A stretch of 64,000 nucleotides of DNA from positions 108,514 through 172,513 of the forward strand of contig MGJF01000002.1 of NCBI GenBank assembly GCA_001794125.1, in the 5' to 3' direction. Origin of the DNA: Candidatus Yanofskybacteria bacterium RIFCSPHIGHO2_01_FULL_43_32. GTDB taxonomy: Bacteria; Patescibacteriota; Minisyncoccia; 2-02-FULL-40-12; GWA2-44-9. Position numbers and translations under genes: made by a program. The notes under the pieces are model-generated. The model worked only from the letters and a program-made list of their open reading frames with translations, had not been told where the DNA came from and ran no database searches. This document shows positions 3,607 to 52,081 of this stretch, in pieces; within the stretch, counting starts at the first letter, position 1, and each line of letters begins with the position of its first letter.

Positions 3607-4923
3607 TTGCGCTCAAAAATTAGATATGTTTTAATAAACTTCGTGAAAGTTAACTATTTACTCATTGGAATAATTGTCGGGTCTCTGTTGCTCTTTGTTT
3701 TTGTGTATCCGCAGGGCGTAAGCAAATGGGTACCTGTGCCGAACGTGCCATTTCGTCTTGGTTTAGATTTGCTTGGCGGTACTCATCTTGTTTATCAGGC
3801 CGACCTTTCCAAATCGGAAAACAAAAATGATGCCATGCAGGGCGTCAGGGATGTAATTGAAAGAAGGGTTAATTTTTTCGGCGTTGCCGAGCCGTTGATT
3901 CAGATAAGCGGACAGGACCGTCTGATTGTTGAACTTGCCGGCATCAGCGACGTCGGTCAGGCCATCAAGTTGATAGGCGAAACCCCATTTCTTGAATTTA
4001 AAGAAACAAAAGCCGATACGCAGGCGATATTAGAGGCCCAGCAAAAGGGTCAGAGATTAAATGAAGATCCGTTGCAATCTACAGGGCTTAATGGCAGGCA
4101 TTTGAAACGGGCTGCGGTTGCGTTTGACCAGCAGACCTATCAGCCGCAAGTGAGTTTGGAATTAACCGACGAGGGCGCTAAACTCTTTGCCGAAATAACC
4201 AAGAAAAATTTAGGCAAGATAGTTGCGATATATTTGGACGGAGTTCCCATATCTACTCCCGTAGTCCAATCGGAAATTAAAGACGGCAACGCGGTCATTA
4301 CGGGAAAGTTCACTCCGATCGAATCCAAACTATTGGCGACAAGATTGAATTCCGGCGCTTTGCCTGTGCCGATATCTTTGGTTTCCCAGCAAACCATCGG
4401 CGCGTCTTTGGGAGCCGAATCTTTGGCAAAAAGTTTGAAGGCGGGGATTTACGGTTTGATATTGGTGGCTTTGTTCATGATTTTATTTTACCGGTTGCCG
4501 GGGGTGGTTTCGGTAATCGCTTTGGGGGTGTATGTTTTAATAGTCTTGTCTATTTATAAATTTATTCCGGTTACGCTGACCTTAGCCGGTATCGCCGGAT
4601 TTATTCTTTCGCTGGGCATGGCGGTGGACGCCAACGTTTTGATATTTGCCAGAATGAGGGAGGAATTAAAGGCCGGAAAATCAATCCGCGCGTCAATGCA
4701 TGAAGGGTTTTCACGCGCCTGGCTTTCAGTAAGGGACAGCCACGTGACCACTCTTATCGGCGCGTTTGTGCTGTACACGTTTACGACCTCTATAGTGAAA
4801 GGATTTGCCTTGACTTTGGGCATCGGAGTTTTGACGAGCTTGTTTACGGCTACGGTTGTGACAAGAACTATTTTGAATTTGATAAGCGGACCGAAAATGG
4901 AGAATAAAAAGAGGTTGTTCTAA
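3607..4923 (+). CDS. secD: protein translocase subunit SecD
   Basis: N-terminal TM, large periplasmic domain, C-terminal 6-TM SecD/SecF core (LVALFMILFYRLPGVV..., GFILSLGMAVDANVLIFARMREE). The start is uncertain: TTG at 3607 per the ORF track, with an in-frame GTG at 3643 also possible. Confidence 0.85.
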   Translation: MRSKIRYVLINFVKVNYLLIGIIVGSLLLFVFVYPQGVSKWVPVPNVPFRLGLDLLGGTHLVYQADLSKSENKNDAMQGVRDVIERRVNFFGVAEPLIQISGQDRLIVELAGISDVGQAIKLIGETPFLEFKETKADTQAILEAQQKGQRLNEDPLQSTGLNGRHLKRAAVAFDQQTYQPQVSLELTDEGAKLFAEITKKNLGKIVAIYLDGVPISTPVVQSEIKDGNAVITGKFTPIESKLLATRLNSGALPVPISLVSQQTIGASLGAESLAKSLKAGIYGLILVALFMILFYRLPGVVSVIALGVYVLIVLSIYKFIPVTLTLAGIAGFILSLGMAVDANVLIFARMREELKAGKSIRASMHEGFSRAWLSVRDSHVTTLIGAFVLYTFTTSIVKGFALTLGIGVLTSLFTATVVTRTILNLISGPKMENKKRLF

Positions 4924-4924
4924 A

Positions 4925-5827
4925 ATGAATAAAATCTATAAAATAATGTTCTGGGTCTCGATATTGCTGGCGGCTTCGGCTGTTATTGTTGTCTTAGTGT
5001 TTGGCTTGAGGTTGGGAGTTGATTTTAAAGGGGGAAGTGTTCTTGAGCTGGAGTTTAATCCGTCGGCTGGCGGAGGGAGACCGGAAATTGAAGCCATTCA
5101 AAAACATCTTTCCGAATTTAAAGATTTGTCGCTGACCCCCTCCGGGGCAAACGGCCTTATAATAAGAACCGGAGAATTGTCGGAACAGGACCACCAGATT
5201 ATTCTGAATAAATTTAAAACAGCTTTTCCGTCCTCCGGCCTGGAAGAAAGAAAATTTGATTCAGTGGGGCCTTTGATCGGGAATGAATTAAGGAATAAAA
5301 GCGTTACCGCAATAATATTGGTGTTGTTGGGAGTAATTATTTATATAGCCATTGTGTTCAGAAAGTTGTCGGGAGTATTGCCCGGCTGGGCAATGGGTCT
5401 TGCCGCGATTGTCGCTCTTGTTCACGATATTGTCATACCAACTGGAGCATTTGCTTTGCTGGGTCATTTTTACGGAATTGAAATAAGCGCCGTATTCGTA
5501 GCCGCGGCTCTTACTATTTTGGGATATTCGGTTTCCGATACCGTGGTTGTGTTTGATAGGGTCAGGGAGAATATTTTAAGAGGCGGAAATAGAGAAGCTT
5601 TTGGCGCCGTGGTCCATAAAAGCATCATGCAAACTTTGACCAGATCGCTTAACACCACATTTACAACCTTATTGTCTTTGATAGCGATTTATTTGTTTGG
5701 TGGGGAGAGTATTAAATACTTTGCTTTGGCCATGATTATGGGTATTTTTCTGGGAGCGTATTCTTCCATATTTGTCGCGTCGCCCTTATTGGTTTGGTGG
5801 AATAAAAGGTACGGGGTTGACGGCTAA
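4925..5827 (+). CDS. secF: protein translocase subunit SecF
   Basis: Begins at the ATG immediately after the secD stop. Has the SecF membrane core (VFDRVRENI, six C-terminal TMs). Confidence 0.85.
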   Translation: MNKIYKIMFWVSILLAASAVIVVLVFGLRLGVDFKGGSVLELEFNPSAGGGRPEIEAIQKHLSEFKDLSLTPSGANGLIIRTGELSEQDHQIILNKFKTAFPSSGLEERKFDSVGPLIGNELRNKSVTAIILVLLGVIIYIAIVFRKLSGVLPGWAMGLAAIVALVHDIVIPTGAFALLGHFYGIEISAVFVAAALTILGYSVSDTVVVFDRVRENILRGGNREAFGAVVHKSIMQTLTRSLNTTFTTLLSLIAIYLFGGESIKYFALAMIMGIFLGAYSSIFVASPLLVWWNKRYGVDG

Positions 5828-5897
5828 GAATAGTAATGATATTATATGTTCAAAGTTTAATTAAAGGGAATTACTTGGAGGGTATCGCCCTGTTTAT

Positions 5898-6968
5898 ATG
5901 AGCAAAAACAATTTAAATCTGTCAGGTCAGAGCGCGGTCACAAAGACGGTCGCAAGTTTGGTCAAAAACTTATCGGCAAGAAACAGGGACATAATTTCCA
6001 GACGTTTTGGGTTGAAGAACGGCAGGAAAGAAACCCTTGAATCCATCGGCAAAAGCTACGGCATTACCAGAGAGAGAGTGAGACAGATAGAGGAATTTAC
6101 CCTGACACAATTATCCAAAGGAACCCTCAATCCCGAAGTGGAAAAATATGCCGCTTTGGCCAAGAATATTTTGAACGAGAACGGCGGAATTATGAAAGAA
6201 AAAGATCTGTTCAAGGCCTTCTCCGGCAGTGACGCCGAATCGGTTCTCAATTCGTCTTTGGTTTTTGTTTTGACCTTGGACAAAGACCTGATTAAATTCA
6301 ACGATAACGATGATCTTCATTCTTTCTGGGCGGCCGACAATAATGTTCTGAATAATTTTAAAAACATGGCCTCGTCCTGTATAAATATTTTGGGTAAGTC
6401 GGGAAAAGTAAGTGCGGAGACGGAATTTTATAATTTAGCTAAAAAGAACGATGTTCCGGGATTAAACGGAGATCTTAATCCAAGGCACCTGGCGACTTAT
6501 ATAACGATTTCCAAGAACGTGGGCAAGAATATTTTTAATGAAGTGGGGCTGGTGTCCTGGCCGGAAATCAGACCCAAAGGCGTAAAAGACAAGGCCTACT
6601 TGGTGCTGAAGAAGAATAATGATCCTAAGCATTTCAGCGAGATTGCCAAACTGATAAATGCCGCCGGATTTCAGGGCAAGAAAGCGAATGTTCAGACCGT
6701 CCACAATGAATTGATAAAAGACAACAGGTTCGTTCTGGTAGGCAGGGGAATGTACGCCTTATCAGAATGGGGCTATAAATCCGGAACAGTAAAAGACGTC
6801 CTCGTCGACCTCCTGAAGAATTCTTCAAAACCGATGCCCAAGACCGCTCTTTTGACCAAAGTGATGAACGCCAGAATGGTAAAAGAAAACACGATTCTCT
6901 TGAATCTCCAGGACTCCAAGACCTTCGTTAAGAACGAAGACGGAACCTACGAATTAAAAGAGGCCTAA
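5898..6968 (+). CDS. sigma-70 region 4 domain-containing protein (CPR-type, no other sigma regions)
   Basis: N-terminus LSARNRDIISRRFGL.NGRKETLESIGKSYGITRERVRQIEEFTLTQL is a clear sigma70_r4 HTH. The remaining ~270 aa are uncharacterised. Confidence 0.55.
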   Translation: MSKNNLNLSGQSAVTKTVASLVKNLSARNRDIISRRFGLKNGRKETLESIGKSYGITRERVRQIEEFTLTQLSKGTLNPEVEKYAALAKNILNENGGIMKEKDLFKAFSGSDAESVLNSSLVFVLTLDKDLIKFNDNDDLHSFWAADNNVLNNFKNMASSCINILGKSGKVSAETEFYNLAKKNDVPGLNGDLNPRHLATYITISKNVGKNIFNEVGLVSWPEIRPKGVKDKAYLVLKKNNDPKHFSEIAKLINAAGFQGKKANVQTVHNELIKDNRFVLVGRGMYALSEWGYKSGTVKDVLVDLLKNSSKPMPKTALLTKVMNARMVKENTILLNLQDSKTFVKNEDGTYELKEA

Positions 6969-48498: not shown

Positions 48499-48525
48499 AG
48501 GTCTTTTTTGGTATTCAAACATAAC

Positions 48526-48554
48526 TTGATTATATTTGAATTGTGCTGTATAAT
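48526..48554 (+). promoter_or_regulatory. promoter TTGATT-17-TATAAT for the two-gene GC-rich operon, flanked by TTCAAA/TTTGAA dyad
   Basis: TTGATT 48526-48531, TATAAT 48549-48554. SD AAGAGGT 48585-48591. Inverted ttcaaa(48514)/tttgaa(48535) around the -35. Confidence 0.5.
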
Positions 48555-48598
48555 ATTGAACTGGTGGTCTTTGGCAATTGAATAAGAGGTAAGAAAAA

Positions 48599-50152
48599 AT
48601 GACGGGACTAATTTTTCAGGGAATCCTGATTGCGGCCCTCGCAGGTCTGGCTATCAAGTTTTTCCTGGACTACCAGAGAAATAATCTGGAAATTACGTGG
48701 GGAGAATACGGCCTTGGGCTTTTGGCAATCAGCTTCGTGTTGACTCCGCTGATAGTCTGGGCCGGCTGGTCGGTAGTAAGGTCGAGCAACCTTTCGTTCA
48801 ATGAGTACAGGAACGGTTGGGAACTGCAGGCTGTGGCCGAACCGGTTCAGTGTGCCCGTGACGGCCCTTGCTGGCACGAGTATGACTGCGACCCGTACAT
48901 CGTCATGGTTTCGTATCAGTGCAATTGTACGACGGATAAAGACGGACGCAGTTCGTGTAGTACGTGCTGGCGTCCGGAAACGCGTTATCACGATTGCCCG
49001 TATGTTACAGTAGAGACATCGTATTCCGTGCAGACGACTCTTGGCAGTTACACGATTGCCGAGCATCGGTTTCCGGAAAATCCGCAATCTCATCGGTGGC
49101 GGACTTCGAAAAACATTCCCCAGTATGTAATTGACAGAGTTGGCGTTAGTGAGCCGCAGTTTTGGAAAGCGGCTGACGTCAGAGTCCGGGCAGGAAAGCC
49201 CGGGCCTGTAACGGCGCGAGCCAGTTACGACAACTACATTTTGGCGAGTGATTCAACTATTCTGAACCAATATTCGGGAGAAGTTGAAAAGTTGCTTGCC
49301 GTGAAAATGTTGCCGGAGTTGTCTCACGGTTTGTATGATTACTACATGGCGAGGAAGGCCTACTCTGTCGGCCCGACGCTTCGTGTAGATACAGGAGCGT
49401 GGTCCGAAAAAGTGGCATACCTGAACGCGGCACTCGGTTCGGAACTTCAGGGAGATCTTCACGTTGTTCTGATTCATGATGCTGACCTCAGAAAGGTCGG
49501 CAGTAGTCCGGATGAATATGCCCTAACGCTAAAAGCCTACTGGCAGAATACGAAACACTTCCAGAAGGATGCTTTGAGTAAAAATACCATTGTCGTTGTT
49601 GTTGGAACAAAGGACGGTGAGTCTGTCAGTTGGGTCCGCGCGATGATCGGCATGCCGCTTGGCAACGAGCGGATGATTACCGAGATCCGAAACAGTCTTG
49701 TGGGTGTGCCGTTTTTGCCGGAGGCGGTTATCGGAGGCATCCGGGGCCATTTTGAAATCTATGGCCAGAAGGTAAAAAGCAGTCAGGAAGTGAACGGCCG
49801 TCTGGGCTCTATCATCTGGGGACGGGAATTGAAAGAAACCCGTTTCAGGCGAGTGAGCATGTCGTCCAAAGATCCTGACGATTTCGGGCAAGGCTTCAGA
49901 TACCTTGCCAATGAAATCCAACTCACATGGTTCCAGCATGGCATGATCCTTTTTCTGTCATTGCTGGGGTGCGGTGTCGTGTGGTACGCTGCTGCAGCGC
50001 ACGGCATTCGTGATCCGCGCAATCATTCCGGGCCATTCGATGTCAACCGCATCAAGAAGTGGTGGAAGTCCCAGTGGCGGGAGATGCGGGCCTGGATCCG
50101 TGTTCAGAAAACCAGCATCGCCGACAAGGTCGGCGGAAGGAGGACGGAATGA
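48599..50152 (+). CDS. hypothetical 3-TM membrane protein with large Cys-rich extracytoplasmic domain and basic Trp-rich C-terminal tail (GC-rich cassette gene 1)
   Basis: TM1 LIFQGILIAALAGLAIKFF, TM2 GLGLLAISFVLTPLIVWAGWSVV. 10 Cys between residues 85 and 130 (CARDGPCWHEYDCDPY...CNCTTDKDGRSSCSTCW...CPY). TM3 MILFLSLLGCGVVWYAAAA. Tail KKWWKSQWREMRAWIRVQK. About 53% GC. No family recognised. Confidence 0.5.
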   Translation: MTGLIFQGILIAALAGLAIKFFLDYQRNNLEITWGEYGLGLLAISFVLTPLIVWAGWSVVRSSNLSFNEYRNGWELQAVAEPVQCARDGPCWHEYDCDPYIVMVSYQCNCTTDKDGRSSCSTCWRPETRYHDCPYVTVETSYSVQTTLGSYTIAEHRFPENPQSHRWRTSKNIPQYVIDRVGVSEPQFWKAADVRVRAGKPGPVTARASYDNYILASDSTILNQYSGEVEKLLAVKMLPELSHGLYDYYMARKAYSVGPTLRVDTGAWSEKVAYLNAALGSELQGDLHVVLIHDADLRKVGSSPDEYALTLKAYWQNTKHFQKDALSKNTIVVVVGTKDGESVSWVRAMIGMPLGNERMITEIRNSLVGVPFLPEAVIGGIRGHFEIYGQKVKSSQEVNGRLGSIIWGRELKETRFRRVSMSSKDPDDFGQGFRYLANEIQLTWFQHGMILFLSLLGCGVVWYAAAAHGIRDPRNHSGPFDVNRIKKWWKSQWREMRAWIRVQKTSIADKVGGRRTE

Positions 50153-50814
50153 ACGGTCGACGAAGCAAGAGGGGTTCGGTGCCGGTTCTGCTCATCATCA
50201 CTGTTGTGGTGTTGGGCGGTCTGTTCGCCGGTGGCGTGTCGTTATACGGCTACGCTAACGGAGTCCGCAACAATCTGGTTAGTCAGGAGACGGCGCTCAA
50301 TGCGCAGTATCAAGACAACCAGAATGAGCTTGGGAACTATGAAGTCGCGTTCTACGAGCAGACAGGGCTGGCAAATCTTAAGTCGGAGAAGATGGATAAG
50401 ATCATCTCCGATGCGGTCAAGGGCCGGTATGAAGGGAAGGACGGCCAGCCCGTTGAACGCGGGCAAGGCGGAGCCTTCTTCTCCGCTATGGTCGAGGCTT
50501 ATCCTGATCTTCGCGGTCAGCTCGATGTTTATGACAAGATAATTTCATTCGTTGCCTCCGGGCGCGAGGCCTACAAAGCCAAGCAGTCCAAACAGCTTGA
50601 CATGCTCCGCGCGTACGAGAGTTACAGGCAGACCGGATGGGTCCGGAGCCTGTTTGTCAATTGGATCGGTTATCCGTCGCTTCGGGCCCAGATCGGACAG
50701 AAGGTCGTTCGTGGAACGGACGCCTTGTCTCAAATGGAACTGATTGTTACCACCGAGACGACAAATCAATCGTATGAGTCGGGCAAGATGAAGGCGCTCA
50801 CAGTTCCCGAGTAG
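50149..50814 (+). CDS. LemA-family protein (GC-rich cassette gene 2)
   Basis: ATGA-coupled to gene 1. N-terminal TM then NNLVSQETALNAQYQDNQNEL...YPDLRGQLDVYDKIIS...QLDMLRAYESYRQ, the LemA (PF04011) layout. Confidence 0.55.
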   Translation: MNGRRSKRGSVPVLLIITVVVLGGLFAGGVSLYGYANGVRNNLVSQETALNAQYQDNQNELGNYEVAFYEQTGLANLKSEKMDKIISDAVKGRYEGKDGQPVERGQGGAFFSAMVEAYPDLRGQLDVYDKIISFVASGREAYKAKQSKQLDMLRAYESYRQTGWVRSLFVNWIGYPSLRAQIGQKVVRGTDALSQMELIVTTETTNQSYESGKMKALTVPE

Positions 50815-50837
50815 GAATGATGGCCAGAAATGGTCTC

Positions 50838-50868
50838 GGGCCGCGGATTACGCGGCCCGTTTTTTTTA
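50838..50868 (+). terminator. strong intrinsic terminator
   Basis: gggccgcggattacgcggccc followed by gttttttttatt. Confidence 0.6.
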
Positions 50869-50894
50869 TTAAAATTTTGTGATATATTATAAAA

Positions 50895-51655: not shown

Positions 51656-52081
51656 ATGCAAAAAGTTCAAGCTAAATCTTATGGTGTTATACCAATTTTC
51701 AAGAATGAAGATGGTTTTTATGTTCTGCTTGTAAAAAACTCAAAGGGTGGTCATTGGGGCTTACCTAAAGGAACACCGGAAAAAGACGAAAAACCTATTG
51801 ATACCGCTACAAGAGAATTGTTTGAGGAAACTGGCATAAAGGACATTGAAATAAAAGCAGATATCTCTTTTGAAGAAAAATATGATTTTGAAAAAGACGG
51901 TATTCTTTATAACAAAACAAATACTTATTACCCCGGATTTGTAAGTGAAATGACAAAGGGTTCCCAATTAGATCAAATCGACGAATTAAAATGGGTAAAA
52001 ATAAACGAAGCTAAAAATACTATTATCCATTGGTCAGCTATTGATGTTGTCAATAAATTGTCTAGCTGGCTAAATCAATAA
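51656..52081 (+). CDS. Nudix hydrolase
   Basis: Nudix box GHWGLPKGTPEKDEKPIDTATRELFEETGI. Confidence 0.75.
   Translation: MQKVQAKSYGVIPIFKNEDGFYVLLVKNSKGGHWGLPKGTPEKDEKPIDTATRELFEETGIKDIEIKADISFEEKYDFEKDGILYNKTNTYYPGFVSEMTKGSQLDQIDELKWVKINEAKNTIIHWSAIDVVNKLSSWLNQ

Follow-up and report, generated by a model that had tools for sequence, protein, structure and literature searches.

LemA and TPM-domain proteins are very widespread bacterial membrane proteins, and to our knowledge there is no agreed function for either. The initial annotation named DUF2207 proteins (PF09972) as another partner type encoded adjacent to LemA-type genes. On four annotated plasmids (L005, L011, L012 and L013), LemA adjoins YgcG/TPM genes, and in three of these loci (L005, L011 and L013) LemA comes first. 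LemA is structurally represented by TM0961 of Thermotoga maritima (2ETD), while the solved TPM structures available for comparison comprise TLP18.3 (3PW9), Psb32 (8C7I), BA41 (5ANP), PG_0361 (2KW7), cg2496 (2KPT) and Rhom172_1776 (7TBR). TPM proteins have been described as acting in assembly or as adapters, not as enzymes (PMC13456599, PMC11237479); examples are Psb32/TLP18.3 in photosystem II repair, AscF in the respiratory supercomplex, and MOLO-1, an auxiliary subunit of a receptor.

The operon described here lies within a 64,000-nucleotide stretch of Candidatus Yanofskybacteria DNA (the window) and its products are probably the paired subunits of a highly divergent membrane module of the LemA/TPM type, which would act as an envelope scaffold or chaperone complex. 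Both genes are on the forward strand: gene 1 (48599..50152) encodes a 517-amino-acid, three-TM protein, the TPM-fold partner, and gene 2 (50149..50814) a 221-amino-acid, LemA-like protein with one TM segment. The two are joined by an ATGA overlap, in which the ATG of gene 2 at 50149 runs into the TGA of gene 1 at 50150-50152, and the Shine-Dalgarno sequence of gene 2 (AAGGAGG, 50137..50143) is embedded in the 3' end of gene 1, 5 nt upstream of that ATG. A longer gene 2 beginning at a GTG at 50059 was rejected, as the N-termini of homologues align with the ATG at 50149, which has the Shine-Dalgarno sequence. Gene 1 is preceded by its own Shine-Dalgarno sequence, AGAGGT (48585..48590), 8 nt before the ATG and kept in relatives as AGGAGGT. 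Transcription may start from a sigma-70-like promoter, TTGATT-17-TATAAT (48526..48554), with 10 of 12 consensus matches and both hexamers kept in 5 relatives. Downstream, a predicted intrinsic terminator (50837..50869) consists of a hairpin of 9 GC pairs, CGGGCCGCG-GATTA-CGCGGCCCG, followed by T8. The genes are GC-rich (0.525 for gene 1 and 0.548 for gene 2), and their GC3 values, 0.60 and 0.67, are the top two among 42 long ORFs of the window (median 0.476). These features bear out the initial annotation of a self-contained, translationally coupled, GC-rich two-gene membrane operon. An Rfam search of the operon yielded nothing beyond sub-threshold chance matches.

The TTCAAA/TTTGAA dyad that had been noted near the promoter as a possible operator is present, but its extent had been understated. 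It is an inverted repeat (48513..48541) with 12-nt arms, ATTCAAACATAA at 48513-48524 and TTATATTTGAAT at 48530-48541, which are complementary at 11 of 12 positions, are separated by a 5-nt spacer and centre on the -35 hexamer. The relative L099 (86% identity) carries a dyad at the same position with two compensatory double changes, and L105 (82% identity) a different, perfect dyad (12/12); in these two close relatives symmetry is thus preserved through compensatory changes, whereas the sequence itself is not. Relatives with 77% identity or less have no dyad at that promoter position. A stable RNA hairpin was rejected as an explanation of the dyad, the folding energy of -4.1 kcal/mol (z -0.4) being no better than that of shuffled sequence.

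The architecture of gene 1 largely agrees with what had been read from it. Its three TM segments are apparent from hydrophobic stretches at residues 1-24, 35-60 and 447-468, with which the AlphaFold helices at 2-25, 34-65 and 444-467 concur, and basic residues flank the predicted cytoplasmic ends of these segments. TM1 and TM2 form a helical hairpin (48602..48793), followed by a long beta-hairpin domain (residues 66-158; 48794..49072), predicted to be extracytoplasmic, with modelled strands at 66-84, 94-112, 118-134, 138-146 and 149-158. The "10 cysteines in 45 residues" previously ascribed to this region are in fact 8 in 49, at positions 85, 91, 97, 108, 110, 120, 123 and 133; a ninth, C458, sits in TM3. 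In a 42-sequence alignment of gene 1, C85, C91, C97 and C133 are invariant, and the cysteine count is even in 99 of 123 homologues, which would be consistent with disulfide bonding; an Obscuribacterales homologue has lost every cysteine. The alignments next delimit a middle alpha/beta region (residues 159-261; 49073..49381) with the conserved elements PGPVT and YDNYILAS. TM3 (49928..49999) leads into a predicted cytoplasmic tail (residues 468-517; 50000..50149), basic and Trp-rich as described (13 K/R against 5 D/E), with a helix at 482-512. This long tail is restricted to the closest relatives, while other homologues stop shortly past TM3.

Between the middle region and TM3, residues 262-410 of the gene 1 model form a predicted TPM-fold domain, an alpha-beta-alpha sandwich that it has in common with the solved TPM structures. 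The domain contains the invariant polar residues D286, K328-N329 and N356-E357 and the highly conserved motifs QGDLH, SKN and TGMPxGNE; such motifs could point to catalysis or ligand binding instead of a scaffold role. At the sequence level, Pfam and NCBIfam scans of gene 1 passed no model and gave neither TPM nor DUF2207, a Pfam scan of 42 homologues at E<=1 likewise detected neither, and the family profile matched PDB sequences no better than chance. Sub-threshold Pfam TPM_phosphatase matches were obtained in the same region for two of three phage homologues, at 15-17 bits against a gathering threshold of 22.1 bits (PF04536). Trimmed sub-alignments of gene 1 also aligned in the expected register by hhalign to a 7-sequence TPM reference, with marginal scores (P 0.002-0.005, probability 7-13%), while a whole-length comparison with the raw TPM alignment did not recover TPM. 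Matches of gene 1 homologues to PF19545 (DUF6069), FtsX and holins, weak except for DUF6069 (8.5e-6 at best), are assumed to be noise from the TM segments. Compared with YgcG-type TPM proteins, gene 1 has the two-TM hairpin in place of a signal peptide, about 200 extra residues before the TPM domain (the Cys-rich beta-hairpin stalk and the middle domain) and no Gly-rich C-terminal tail. DUF2207 proteins resemble it in having a big outward-facing domain flanked by TM helices.

Gene 2 opens with a basic N-terminus (MNGRRSKRGS) ahead of a TM anchor at residues ~13-35, or ~7-35 at its widest (50185..50253), which is predicted to be oriented N-in, C-out. The anchor is followed by a LemA-like helical domain assigned by hhalign (residues 35-171; 50251..50661), which includes an EAYPDL motif; the predicted helices of the protein span 13-72, 80-90, 109-117 and 125-161. 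The alignments define a further family-specific C-terminal extension (GYPS...ARIG...G..AL.QM..IV.T...Y.SG; 50662..50811), modelled as a small beta-hairpin (179-188) and two helices. Gene 2 had been assigned to the LemA family. Direct searches did not bear this out, as there was no Pfam match at E<=1, no meaningful NCBIfam match, and no match of the family profile to PDB sequences; a distant relationship emerges only in profile-profile comparison. By hhalign, the 59-sequence gene 2 family (A5) matches 10 annotated LemA sequences with a probability of 96.6% (E 6.6e-10) over 131 columns, nearly the entire LemA domain, while a smaller gene 2 alignment reaches 86% and the phage gene 2 family 81% (E 1.2e-5), the last over the complementary C-terminal helices. 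Sub-threshold LemA is also the commonest Pfam family among gene 2 members (8 of 59 in one scan and 7 of 8 in another), and the best relatives score 14-21 bits (top 20.9; E 8.2e-5 to 0.037), with no family member reaching the gathering threshold of 26.2 bits (PF04011). Structural comparison was less decisive: Foldseek placed LemA 2etd at rank 2 of 350,542 chains for the gene 2 model, which is not significant (E 0.4), and the predicted fold gave no significant superposition on 2ETD. LemA and gene 2 have in common an N-terminal membrane anchor followed by a helical domain of ~150 residues, an E-x-YP-x-L motif with later R..Y and FP elements, and a neighbouring gene for a TPM-fold membrane protein, while the conserved C-terminal extension of ~50 residues is absent from canonical LemA. 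Gene 2 thus appears to be a distant LemA relative. When LemA and TPM profile HMMs were run against the ORFs of the window, no canonical LemA or TPM gene was found.

At this locus a LemA-type and a TPM-type membrane protein are encoded side by side in the same orientation, and this pairing is strict across cellular genomes. In 77 of 78 GTDB loci gene 1 is directly followed by a gene 2 homologue on its own strand, and the remaining locus is cut by a contig end; the carriers are Patescibacteria, Melainabacteria and a few others. One carrier, Aeromicrobium sp. 179-A 4D2 NHS (L089), is in culture. The searches found more than 444 homologues of gene 1 and more than 207 of gene 2; clustered at 50% identity, the gene 2 family comprises at least 881 clusters. 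Gene 1 precedes rather than follows the LemA-like gene; plasmid loci L005, L011 and L013 have the opposite order, and L012 shares that of the operon. Two independent natural fusions of the two genes (P0027 and P0307) retain TM3, a linker and the gene 2 TM segment, and therefore both large domains should lie on the same side of the membrane. The persistence of a LemA-TPM partnership despite near-total sequence divergence, together with these fusions, argues that the two proteins form an obligate complex. Clustering the flanks of the 78 loci all against all gave no conserved third gene; the third large cluster (77 loci) consists, by its listed members, of ORFs that overlap the two genes in another frame or antisense to them. 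In the Yanofskybacteria clade the pair keeps its place between holB and frr as protein identity falls from 86% to 72%, while its genomic location differs between lineages and tandem duplications occur in Melainabacteria. Such patchy distribution, foreign composition and tandem duplication fit accessory or conflict genes better than housekeeping chaperones.

Homologues of the pair are also widespread in phages. Gene 1 matches phrog_2087 (E 1.8e-20) and gene 2 matches phrog_1383 (E 4.3e-22), and hhalign against these phage families is full-length in both cases, with 99.8% probability and E values of 1.5e-27 and 1.9e-28. The phage pair occurs in Ackermannviridae, T4-like, T5-like, ICP1 and jumbo phages, with both genes adjacent in five phage families; examples are Aeh1p307/Aeh1p306, orf00251/orf00252 of Shigella phage AG3, and the pairs of ICP1, pVp-1 and Serratia phage 3M. 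Gene 2 relatives are present in at least 497 phage records. In gene order and in the 3-TM plus 1-TM layout the phage pair is the same as the operon pair, while its proteins are shorter (320-370 and 182-189 amino acids) and 21-31% identical to those of the operon. The phage gene 1 homologues lack residues ~158-177 and ~385-405 and retain only K328, N329 and N356 of the invariant polar set, not D286 or E357; the phage gene 2 branch has lost the EAYPDL motif. The cellular type was additionally found on IMG/VR viral contigs at 36-43% identity, one of these contigs measuring 196 kb and encoding a phage DNA polymerase and a homing endonuclease. The phage genes lie among small early or accessory genes outside the structural modules, beside rIIA in Serratia phage 3M.

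In the arrangement that we favour, gene 1 would enter the membrane as a two-helix hairpin and expose about 380 residues outside the cytoplasm, arranged as a disulfide-rich beta-hairpin stalk, the middle alpha/beta region and the TPM-fold domain, before the chain returns through TM3 to its basic cytoplasmic tail. Gene 2, anchored by a single N-terminal helix (N-in), would display its LemA-like helical domain on that outer side as well. Translational coupling would ensure joint production of the two proteins, which may then assemble into a heteromeric complex. By analogy with characterised TPM proteins, this complex would most likely serve as a scaffold or chaperone without enzymatic activity, helping to stabilise or assemble protein complexes of the envelope or membrane, and large lytic phages would use copies of their own to control the envelope of the infected host. 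Literature searches on LemA with TPM, DUF2207, htpX or phage, and on the PHROG identifiers, returned no functional study of this operon family.

The main rival reading takes the pair for a mobile superinfection-exclusion, anti-phage or counter-defence membrane cassette, of which the cellular copies in Patescibacteria and Melainabacteria would be domesticated, protective phage genes; its early expression by a phage would alter the cell envelope and block competitors. It can draw on the matches of both proteins to phage families at E values of about 1e-20, on the hundreds of phage records and the viral contigs with the cellular type, on the early or accessory setting of the phage genes, next to rIIA in Serratia phage 3M, and on the highest GC3 in the window, the varying location and the Melainabacteria duplications. 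No PADLOC-DB 2.0.0 model, however, matches either protein (E<=1), the holB-frr position in Yanofskybacteria is stable with only housekeeping genes among the neighbours examined, and neither LemA nor TPM proteins are known to confer exclusion or defence; we regard this reading as unlikely. Considerably less plausible still is that gene 2 encodes a structural protein of phage virions and that the locus is a prophage remnant. Although phrog_1383 and many phage records bear the label 'virion structural protein', other records call the relatives 'membrane protein', 'hypothetical' or even 'major capsid protein', the phage genes lie outside the structural modules, and gene 2 has a TM anchor and pairs with a 3-TM protein; the label is most likely a mislabel. 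The pair is flanked in the window by murG, holB, frr, rseP and proS, and the neighbours examined here and in the Yanofskybacteria relatives are housekeeping genes only, with neither an integrase nor any other phage gene among them. These flanks, together with the same synteny in relatives, led to the rejection of a prophage remnant in the window.

Two further readings concern gene 1 itself. The initial annotation held that gene 1 fitted neither the TPM nor the DUF2207 pattern, proposed a new LemA-associated module with an unrelated partner, and named a TPM match as one result that would speak against it. The failure of Pfam and NCBIfam to find TPM or DUF2207 in gene 1, or of Pfam to do so in its 42 homologues, and the ~60% of the protein (N-terminal TMs, Cys-rich beta domain and middle domain) with no YgcG-type counterpart agree with that proposal, but gene 1 matches TPM at fold level, with sub-threshold TPM_phosphatase matches in its phage homologues, and the proposal is therefore already contradicted at that level; it now seems very improbable. 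What is new here is the domain layout surrounding the TPM fold, the inverted order of the genes, the range of taxa and the link to phages. We give an equally small chance to gene 1 being an outer-face enzyme, a phosphatase or nucleotidase, with gene 2 as its regulator. The TPM fold and the invariant D286, K328-N329 and N356-E357 could be so interpreted, and phosphatase or ATPase activities have been reported for TLP18.3, Rv2345 and BA41 (summarised in PMC13456599). The loss of D286 and E357 from the phage homologues counts against it, as does the fact that TPM-domain activities are weak and disputed and that AscF binds neither metal nor nucleotide (PMC13456599).

Compared with the scaffold or chaperone reading, a broader proposal is put forward more tentatively, namely that the pair represents an ancient membrane module, exchanged between large lytic phages and a small number of bacterial lineages, with a role in virus-host conflict at the envelope. 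Excluding competing phages, or keeping the host membrane stable through a long infection, would be examples of such a role. A previously unannotated family can now be assigned to the LemA/TPM system, with a new N-terminal architecture, and the phage connection would correct a propagated annotation. Hundreds of sequenced large lytic phages carry the pair, and some are tractable in the laboratory; among them are model or therapy-relevant phages such as ICP1, Kuttervirus/Ackermannviridae, T5-like phages, Aeh1 and jumbo phages, and they offer genetic systems for studying LemA/TPM function. If the conflict-module proposal is true, ICP1, T5-like or Kuttervirus phages would provide the first experimentally tractable entry to the function of the LemA/TPM superfamily. 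For the Patescibacteria, organisms with poorly known surface biology, the operon provides a candidate envelope-associated complex.

The two genes form a real and well-delimited operon on the forward strand, in which gene 1 (48599-50152) encodes a protein of 517 aa and gene 2 (50149-50814) one of 221 aa. A promoter-like site, TTGATT-17-TATAAT (48526-48554), lies upstream of gene 1, and a hairpin with nine G-C pairs followed by T8 (50837-50869) lies downstream of gene 2. The initial annotation, which described a GC-rich, translationally coupled pair, is upheld on both points: the gene 2 ATG (50149) overlaps the gene 1 TGA as ATGA, with AAGGAGG 5 nt before it, and the GC3 values of gene 1 (0.60) and gene 2 (0.67) are the two highest among the 42 long ORFs of the window, whose median is 0.476. 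A longer gene 2 frame from a GTG at 50059 was rejected, since homologues do not use that start. The pair sits among housekeeping genes, with murG and a holB-like gene on one side and frr, a NUDIX gene, rseP and proS on the other. The NUDIX-like gene (51656-52081), just 3' of frr, deviates the other way in composition (GC 0.32; GC3 0.24 against the same median). The window corresponds to a Candidatus Yanofskybacteria (Patescibacteria/CPR) genome, and two hypothetical proteins of a RIFCSPLOWO2_02_FULL bin, A3I26_03520 and A3I26_03515, are 100% identical to the two products.

The dyad read as a possible operator at the promoter is present as an inverted repeat centred on the -35 hexamer, with 12-nt arms (48513-48524 and 48530-48541) complementary at 11 of 12 positions. 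It recurs at the same place in a relative with 86% identity (L099, 2593-2621), retained through two compensatory double substitutions, and in another with 82% identity (L105, 1411-1441) as a different sequence forming a perfect 12/12 dyad; none was found in relatives at <=77% identity. Position and symmetry are thus kept while sequence is not, and the symmetry seems to be under selection. As an RNA hairpin, the dyad of the window (-4.1 kcal/mol) is no stabler than shuffled sequence, and that of L105 is strong (-16.1 kcal/mol, z -6.2); the element is a candidate operator or DNA/RNA structure.

Relatives of gene 1 numbered 96 in GTDB species representatives, and 78 loci were kept. These belong to many Patescibacteria lineages and many Melainabacteria/Obscuribacterales, together with a small number of MAGs that bear the label Proteobacteria, Bryobacterales or Anaerolineales, and a single cultured Actinomycetota isolate, Aeromicrobium sp. 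179-A 4D2 NHS (L089, NZ_JBFOKO010000003.1), the sole record of the scan not labelled a MAG. This isolate has both genes intact (gene 1-like ORF 3830-5338, gene 2-like ORF 5377-6072) and is a possible experimental host. The two genes are obligate partners: 77 of the 78 loci have a gene 2 homologue directly 3' of gene 1 on the same strand, and the remaining locus ends at a contig edge. Flanking genes vary from lineage to lineage, and the flanks of the 78 loci show no further recurrent family; within the Yanofskybacteria clade, the order murG-holB-pair-frr-rseP-proS is retained down to 72% identity. Duplication is frequent in Melainabacteria, either of the whole pair in tandem (Melainabacteria/Obscuribacterales loci L046, L048, L049, L051, L058 and L059) or as one gene 1 followed by two gene 2 paralogues (e.g. 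L044, L047, L062, L063, L075 and L083). Additional gene 2 fragments may be present in L079 and L083.

The proposed three TM segments and basic tail of gene 1 agree with the three hydrophobic segments found and with a tail holding 13 K/R versus 5 D/E. In its AlphaFold model (pLDDT 88.3, pTM 0.78), TM1 and TM2 are followed by long, cysteine-bearing beta-hairpins (residues 66-158), an alpha/beta region, TM3 (residues 444-467) and a cytoplasmic helix. Two independent natural fusions of gene 1 to gene 2, from different branches (P0027, 690 aa; P0307, 680 aa), retain TM3 and the gene 2 TM, joined by a short linker. Such a chain is topologically feasible only with both large domains on the same side of the membrane, predicted by the positive-inside rule to be the outside. 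The cysteine cluster also exists, although it comprises eight cysteines (residues 85-133) and not the ten first counted. Cysteine counts are even in 99 of 123 gene 1 homologues, a pattern that fits disulfides. An Obscuribacterales homologue with 37% identity (L002, 4501-5898) has none of the eight beta-hairpin cysteines, while its remainder aligns well; the cluster is thus expendable in some lineages and, because this homologue lacks all of them, is probably structural rather than catalytic. Genes for DoxX and for VKOR, a disulfide-forming enzyme, lie about 4 kb 5' of the pair in a Patescibacteria contig (L014, 1-674), a linkage seen in one lineage only, on two near-identical contigs (L014, L015); a nearby VKOR would fit an outward-facing, disulfide-rich domain.

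Pfam gave zero matches to either gene at E<=1, NCBIfam nothing meaningful, and a Pfam scan of all members of the gene 2 alignment A1 (34 sequences) and the gene 1 alignment A2 (42 sequences) no LemA, TPM or DUF2207; PDB sequences searched with the family profiles of both genes yielded nothing. Since these searches found no match, the LemA-family label is not a database-level assignment; what stands is remote homology. Against A3, an alignment of ten plasmid-record proteins annotated "LemA family protein", A1 aligned by hhalign at 86% (E 5e-6) in a stretch of 36 columns surrounding the E-AYPDL-K motif. Searching 1.84 billion cluster representatives with a gene 2 profile returned 881 clusters, and the more diverse 59-sequence alignment built from them (A5) matched A3 at 96.6% (E 6.6e-10) over 131 columns, covering residues 35-171 and nearly the whole LemA domain. 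LemA was the commonest sub-threshold Pfam family among gene 2 members (8/59, best E 8.2e-5) and appeared in 7 of 8 selected Melainabacteria-type homologues, every match falling below the cut-off of 26.2 bits. Unlike LemA, the gene 2 family has a conserved C-terminal extension of ~50 residues of its own. These profile comparisons indicate that gene 2 is homologous to LemA at the superfamily level, outside the Pfam family.

The claim that gene 1 fits neither TPM nor DUF2207 fails for TPM, since at the fold level gene 1 conceals a TPM domain. Its motif DLHVVLI...PDEYALTLKAYWQ...SKNTIVVVVGTKDGESVSW...GMPLGNE is suggestive of TPM domains, trimmed hhalign reproduces the helix-strand-helix-strand order in the register expected of TPM (P ~0.002), and Pfam TPM_phosphatase is sub-threshold in two of three phage homologues, exactly at the TPM-like region. 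The sequence signal suggests the domain weakly and consistently; TPM domains are very divergent in sequence (PMC13456599). Rather than a new kind of LemA partner, the operon holds a LemA-TPM pair in cryptic form and with an elaborated architecture. Canonical LemA genes directly adjoin YgcG/TPM genes in four records of the plasmid sample (L005, L011, L012, L013). The 47-kb Clostridioides difficile plasmid pCd11_3 (L006, 2923-4277), which resembles a phage in content (ssb, sigma factor, HNH endonuclease), carries a canonical LemA gene followed by an unannotated 268-aa gene, and LemA modules may be common on mobile elements.

Homologues of the pair also occur in phages. In PHROGs, gene 1 matched phrog_2087 (E 1.8e-20) and gene 2 phrog_1383 (E 4.3e-22), labelled "virion structural protein"; tblastn found relatives of gene 2 in 231 phage records and of gene 1 in 68, and a phage query matched 497 records. 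Carriers include Ackermannviridae (Salmonella, Escherichia, Dickeya, Klebsiella and Serratia phages), T4-like Aeromonas phages, T5-like Vibrio, Pectobacterium and Providencia phages, ICP1, jumbo phages (RaK2, PBECO4, Erwinia phages, XacN1, FLC9) and Lak megaphages. Each of the five families examined has the two genes side by side in the cellular order, placed among small early/accessory genes and encoding a 3-TM protein of ~320-370 aa and then a 1-TM protein of ~182-189 aa; loci from Ackermannviridae, Straboviridae, Demerecviridae and ICP1 are L100 3797-5480, L101 3784-5465, L102 3948-5474, L103 2456-4049 and L104 2334-4034. By hhalign, homology between the cellular and phage families spans the entire proteins (99.8%; E 1.5e-27 and 1.9e-28), and an independent comparison of the phage gene 2 family with LemA gives a match to the C-terminal half of the latter (81%, E 1.2e-5). 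Seven IMG/VR viral contigs likewise carry the cellular-type pair, one of them a putative jumbo-phage contig of 196 kb (L113, UViG_3300050034_000187; 42% identity), where IS200/IS605-type transposase genes and a phage DNA polymerase gene preceded/interrupted by a homing-endonuclease-like ORF lie nearby.

The two proteins would form a complex on the outward side of the cytoplasmic membrane. The favoured role, by analogy, is that of a scaffold or chaperone that helps to maintain the envelope or membrane complexes, because the best-characterised TPM proteins serve in the assembly or repair of membrane complexes or as their adapters, and the phosphatase activities reported for them are weak (PMC13456599, PMC11237479). 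An enzymatic role is less likely. The chief alternative is a phage-type role in exclusion or conflict, favoured by genes that are mobile, patchily distributed, foreign in composition and duplicated; PADLOC models gave no match to the pair, and no paper on its phage homologues was found. A virion-structural role, as some phage annotations imply, is also less likely: the labels disagree with one another ("virion structural protein", "membrane protein", "major capsid protein" in Pectobacterium phage DU_PP_V, and "4-alpha-glucanotransferase" for a gene 1 homologue of Klebsiella virus vB_KpnM-20), and the structural ones look like propagated errors. Under the favoured scaffold or chaperone role, phages may reuse the pair to manage the host envelope, and the value added here is the link between the cellular pair and a large, mis-annotated phage gene pair.
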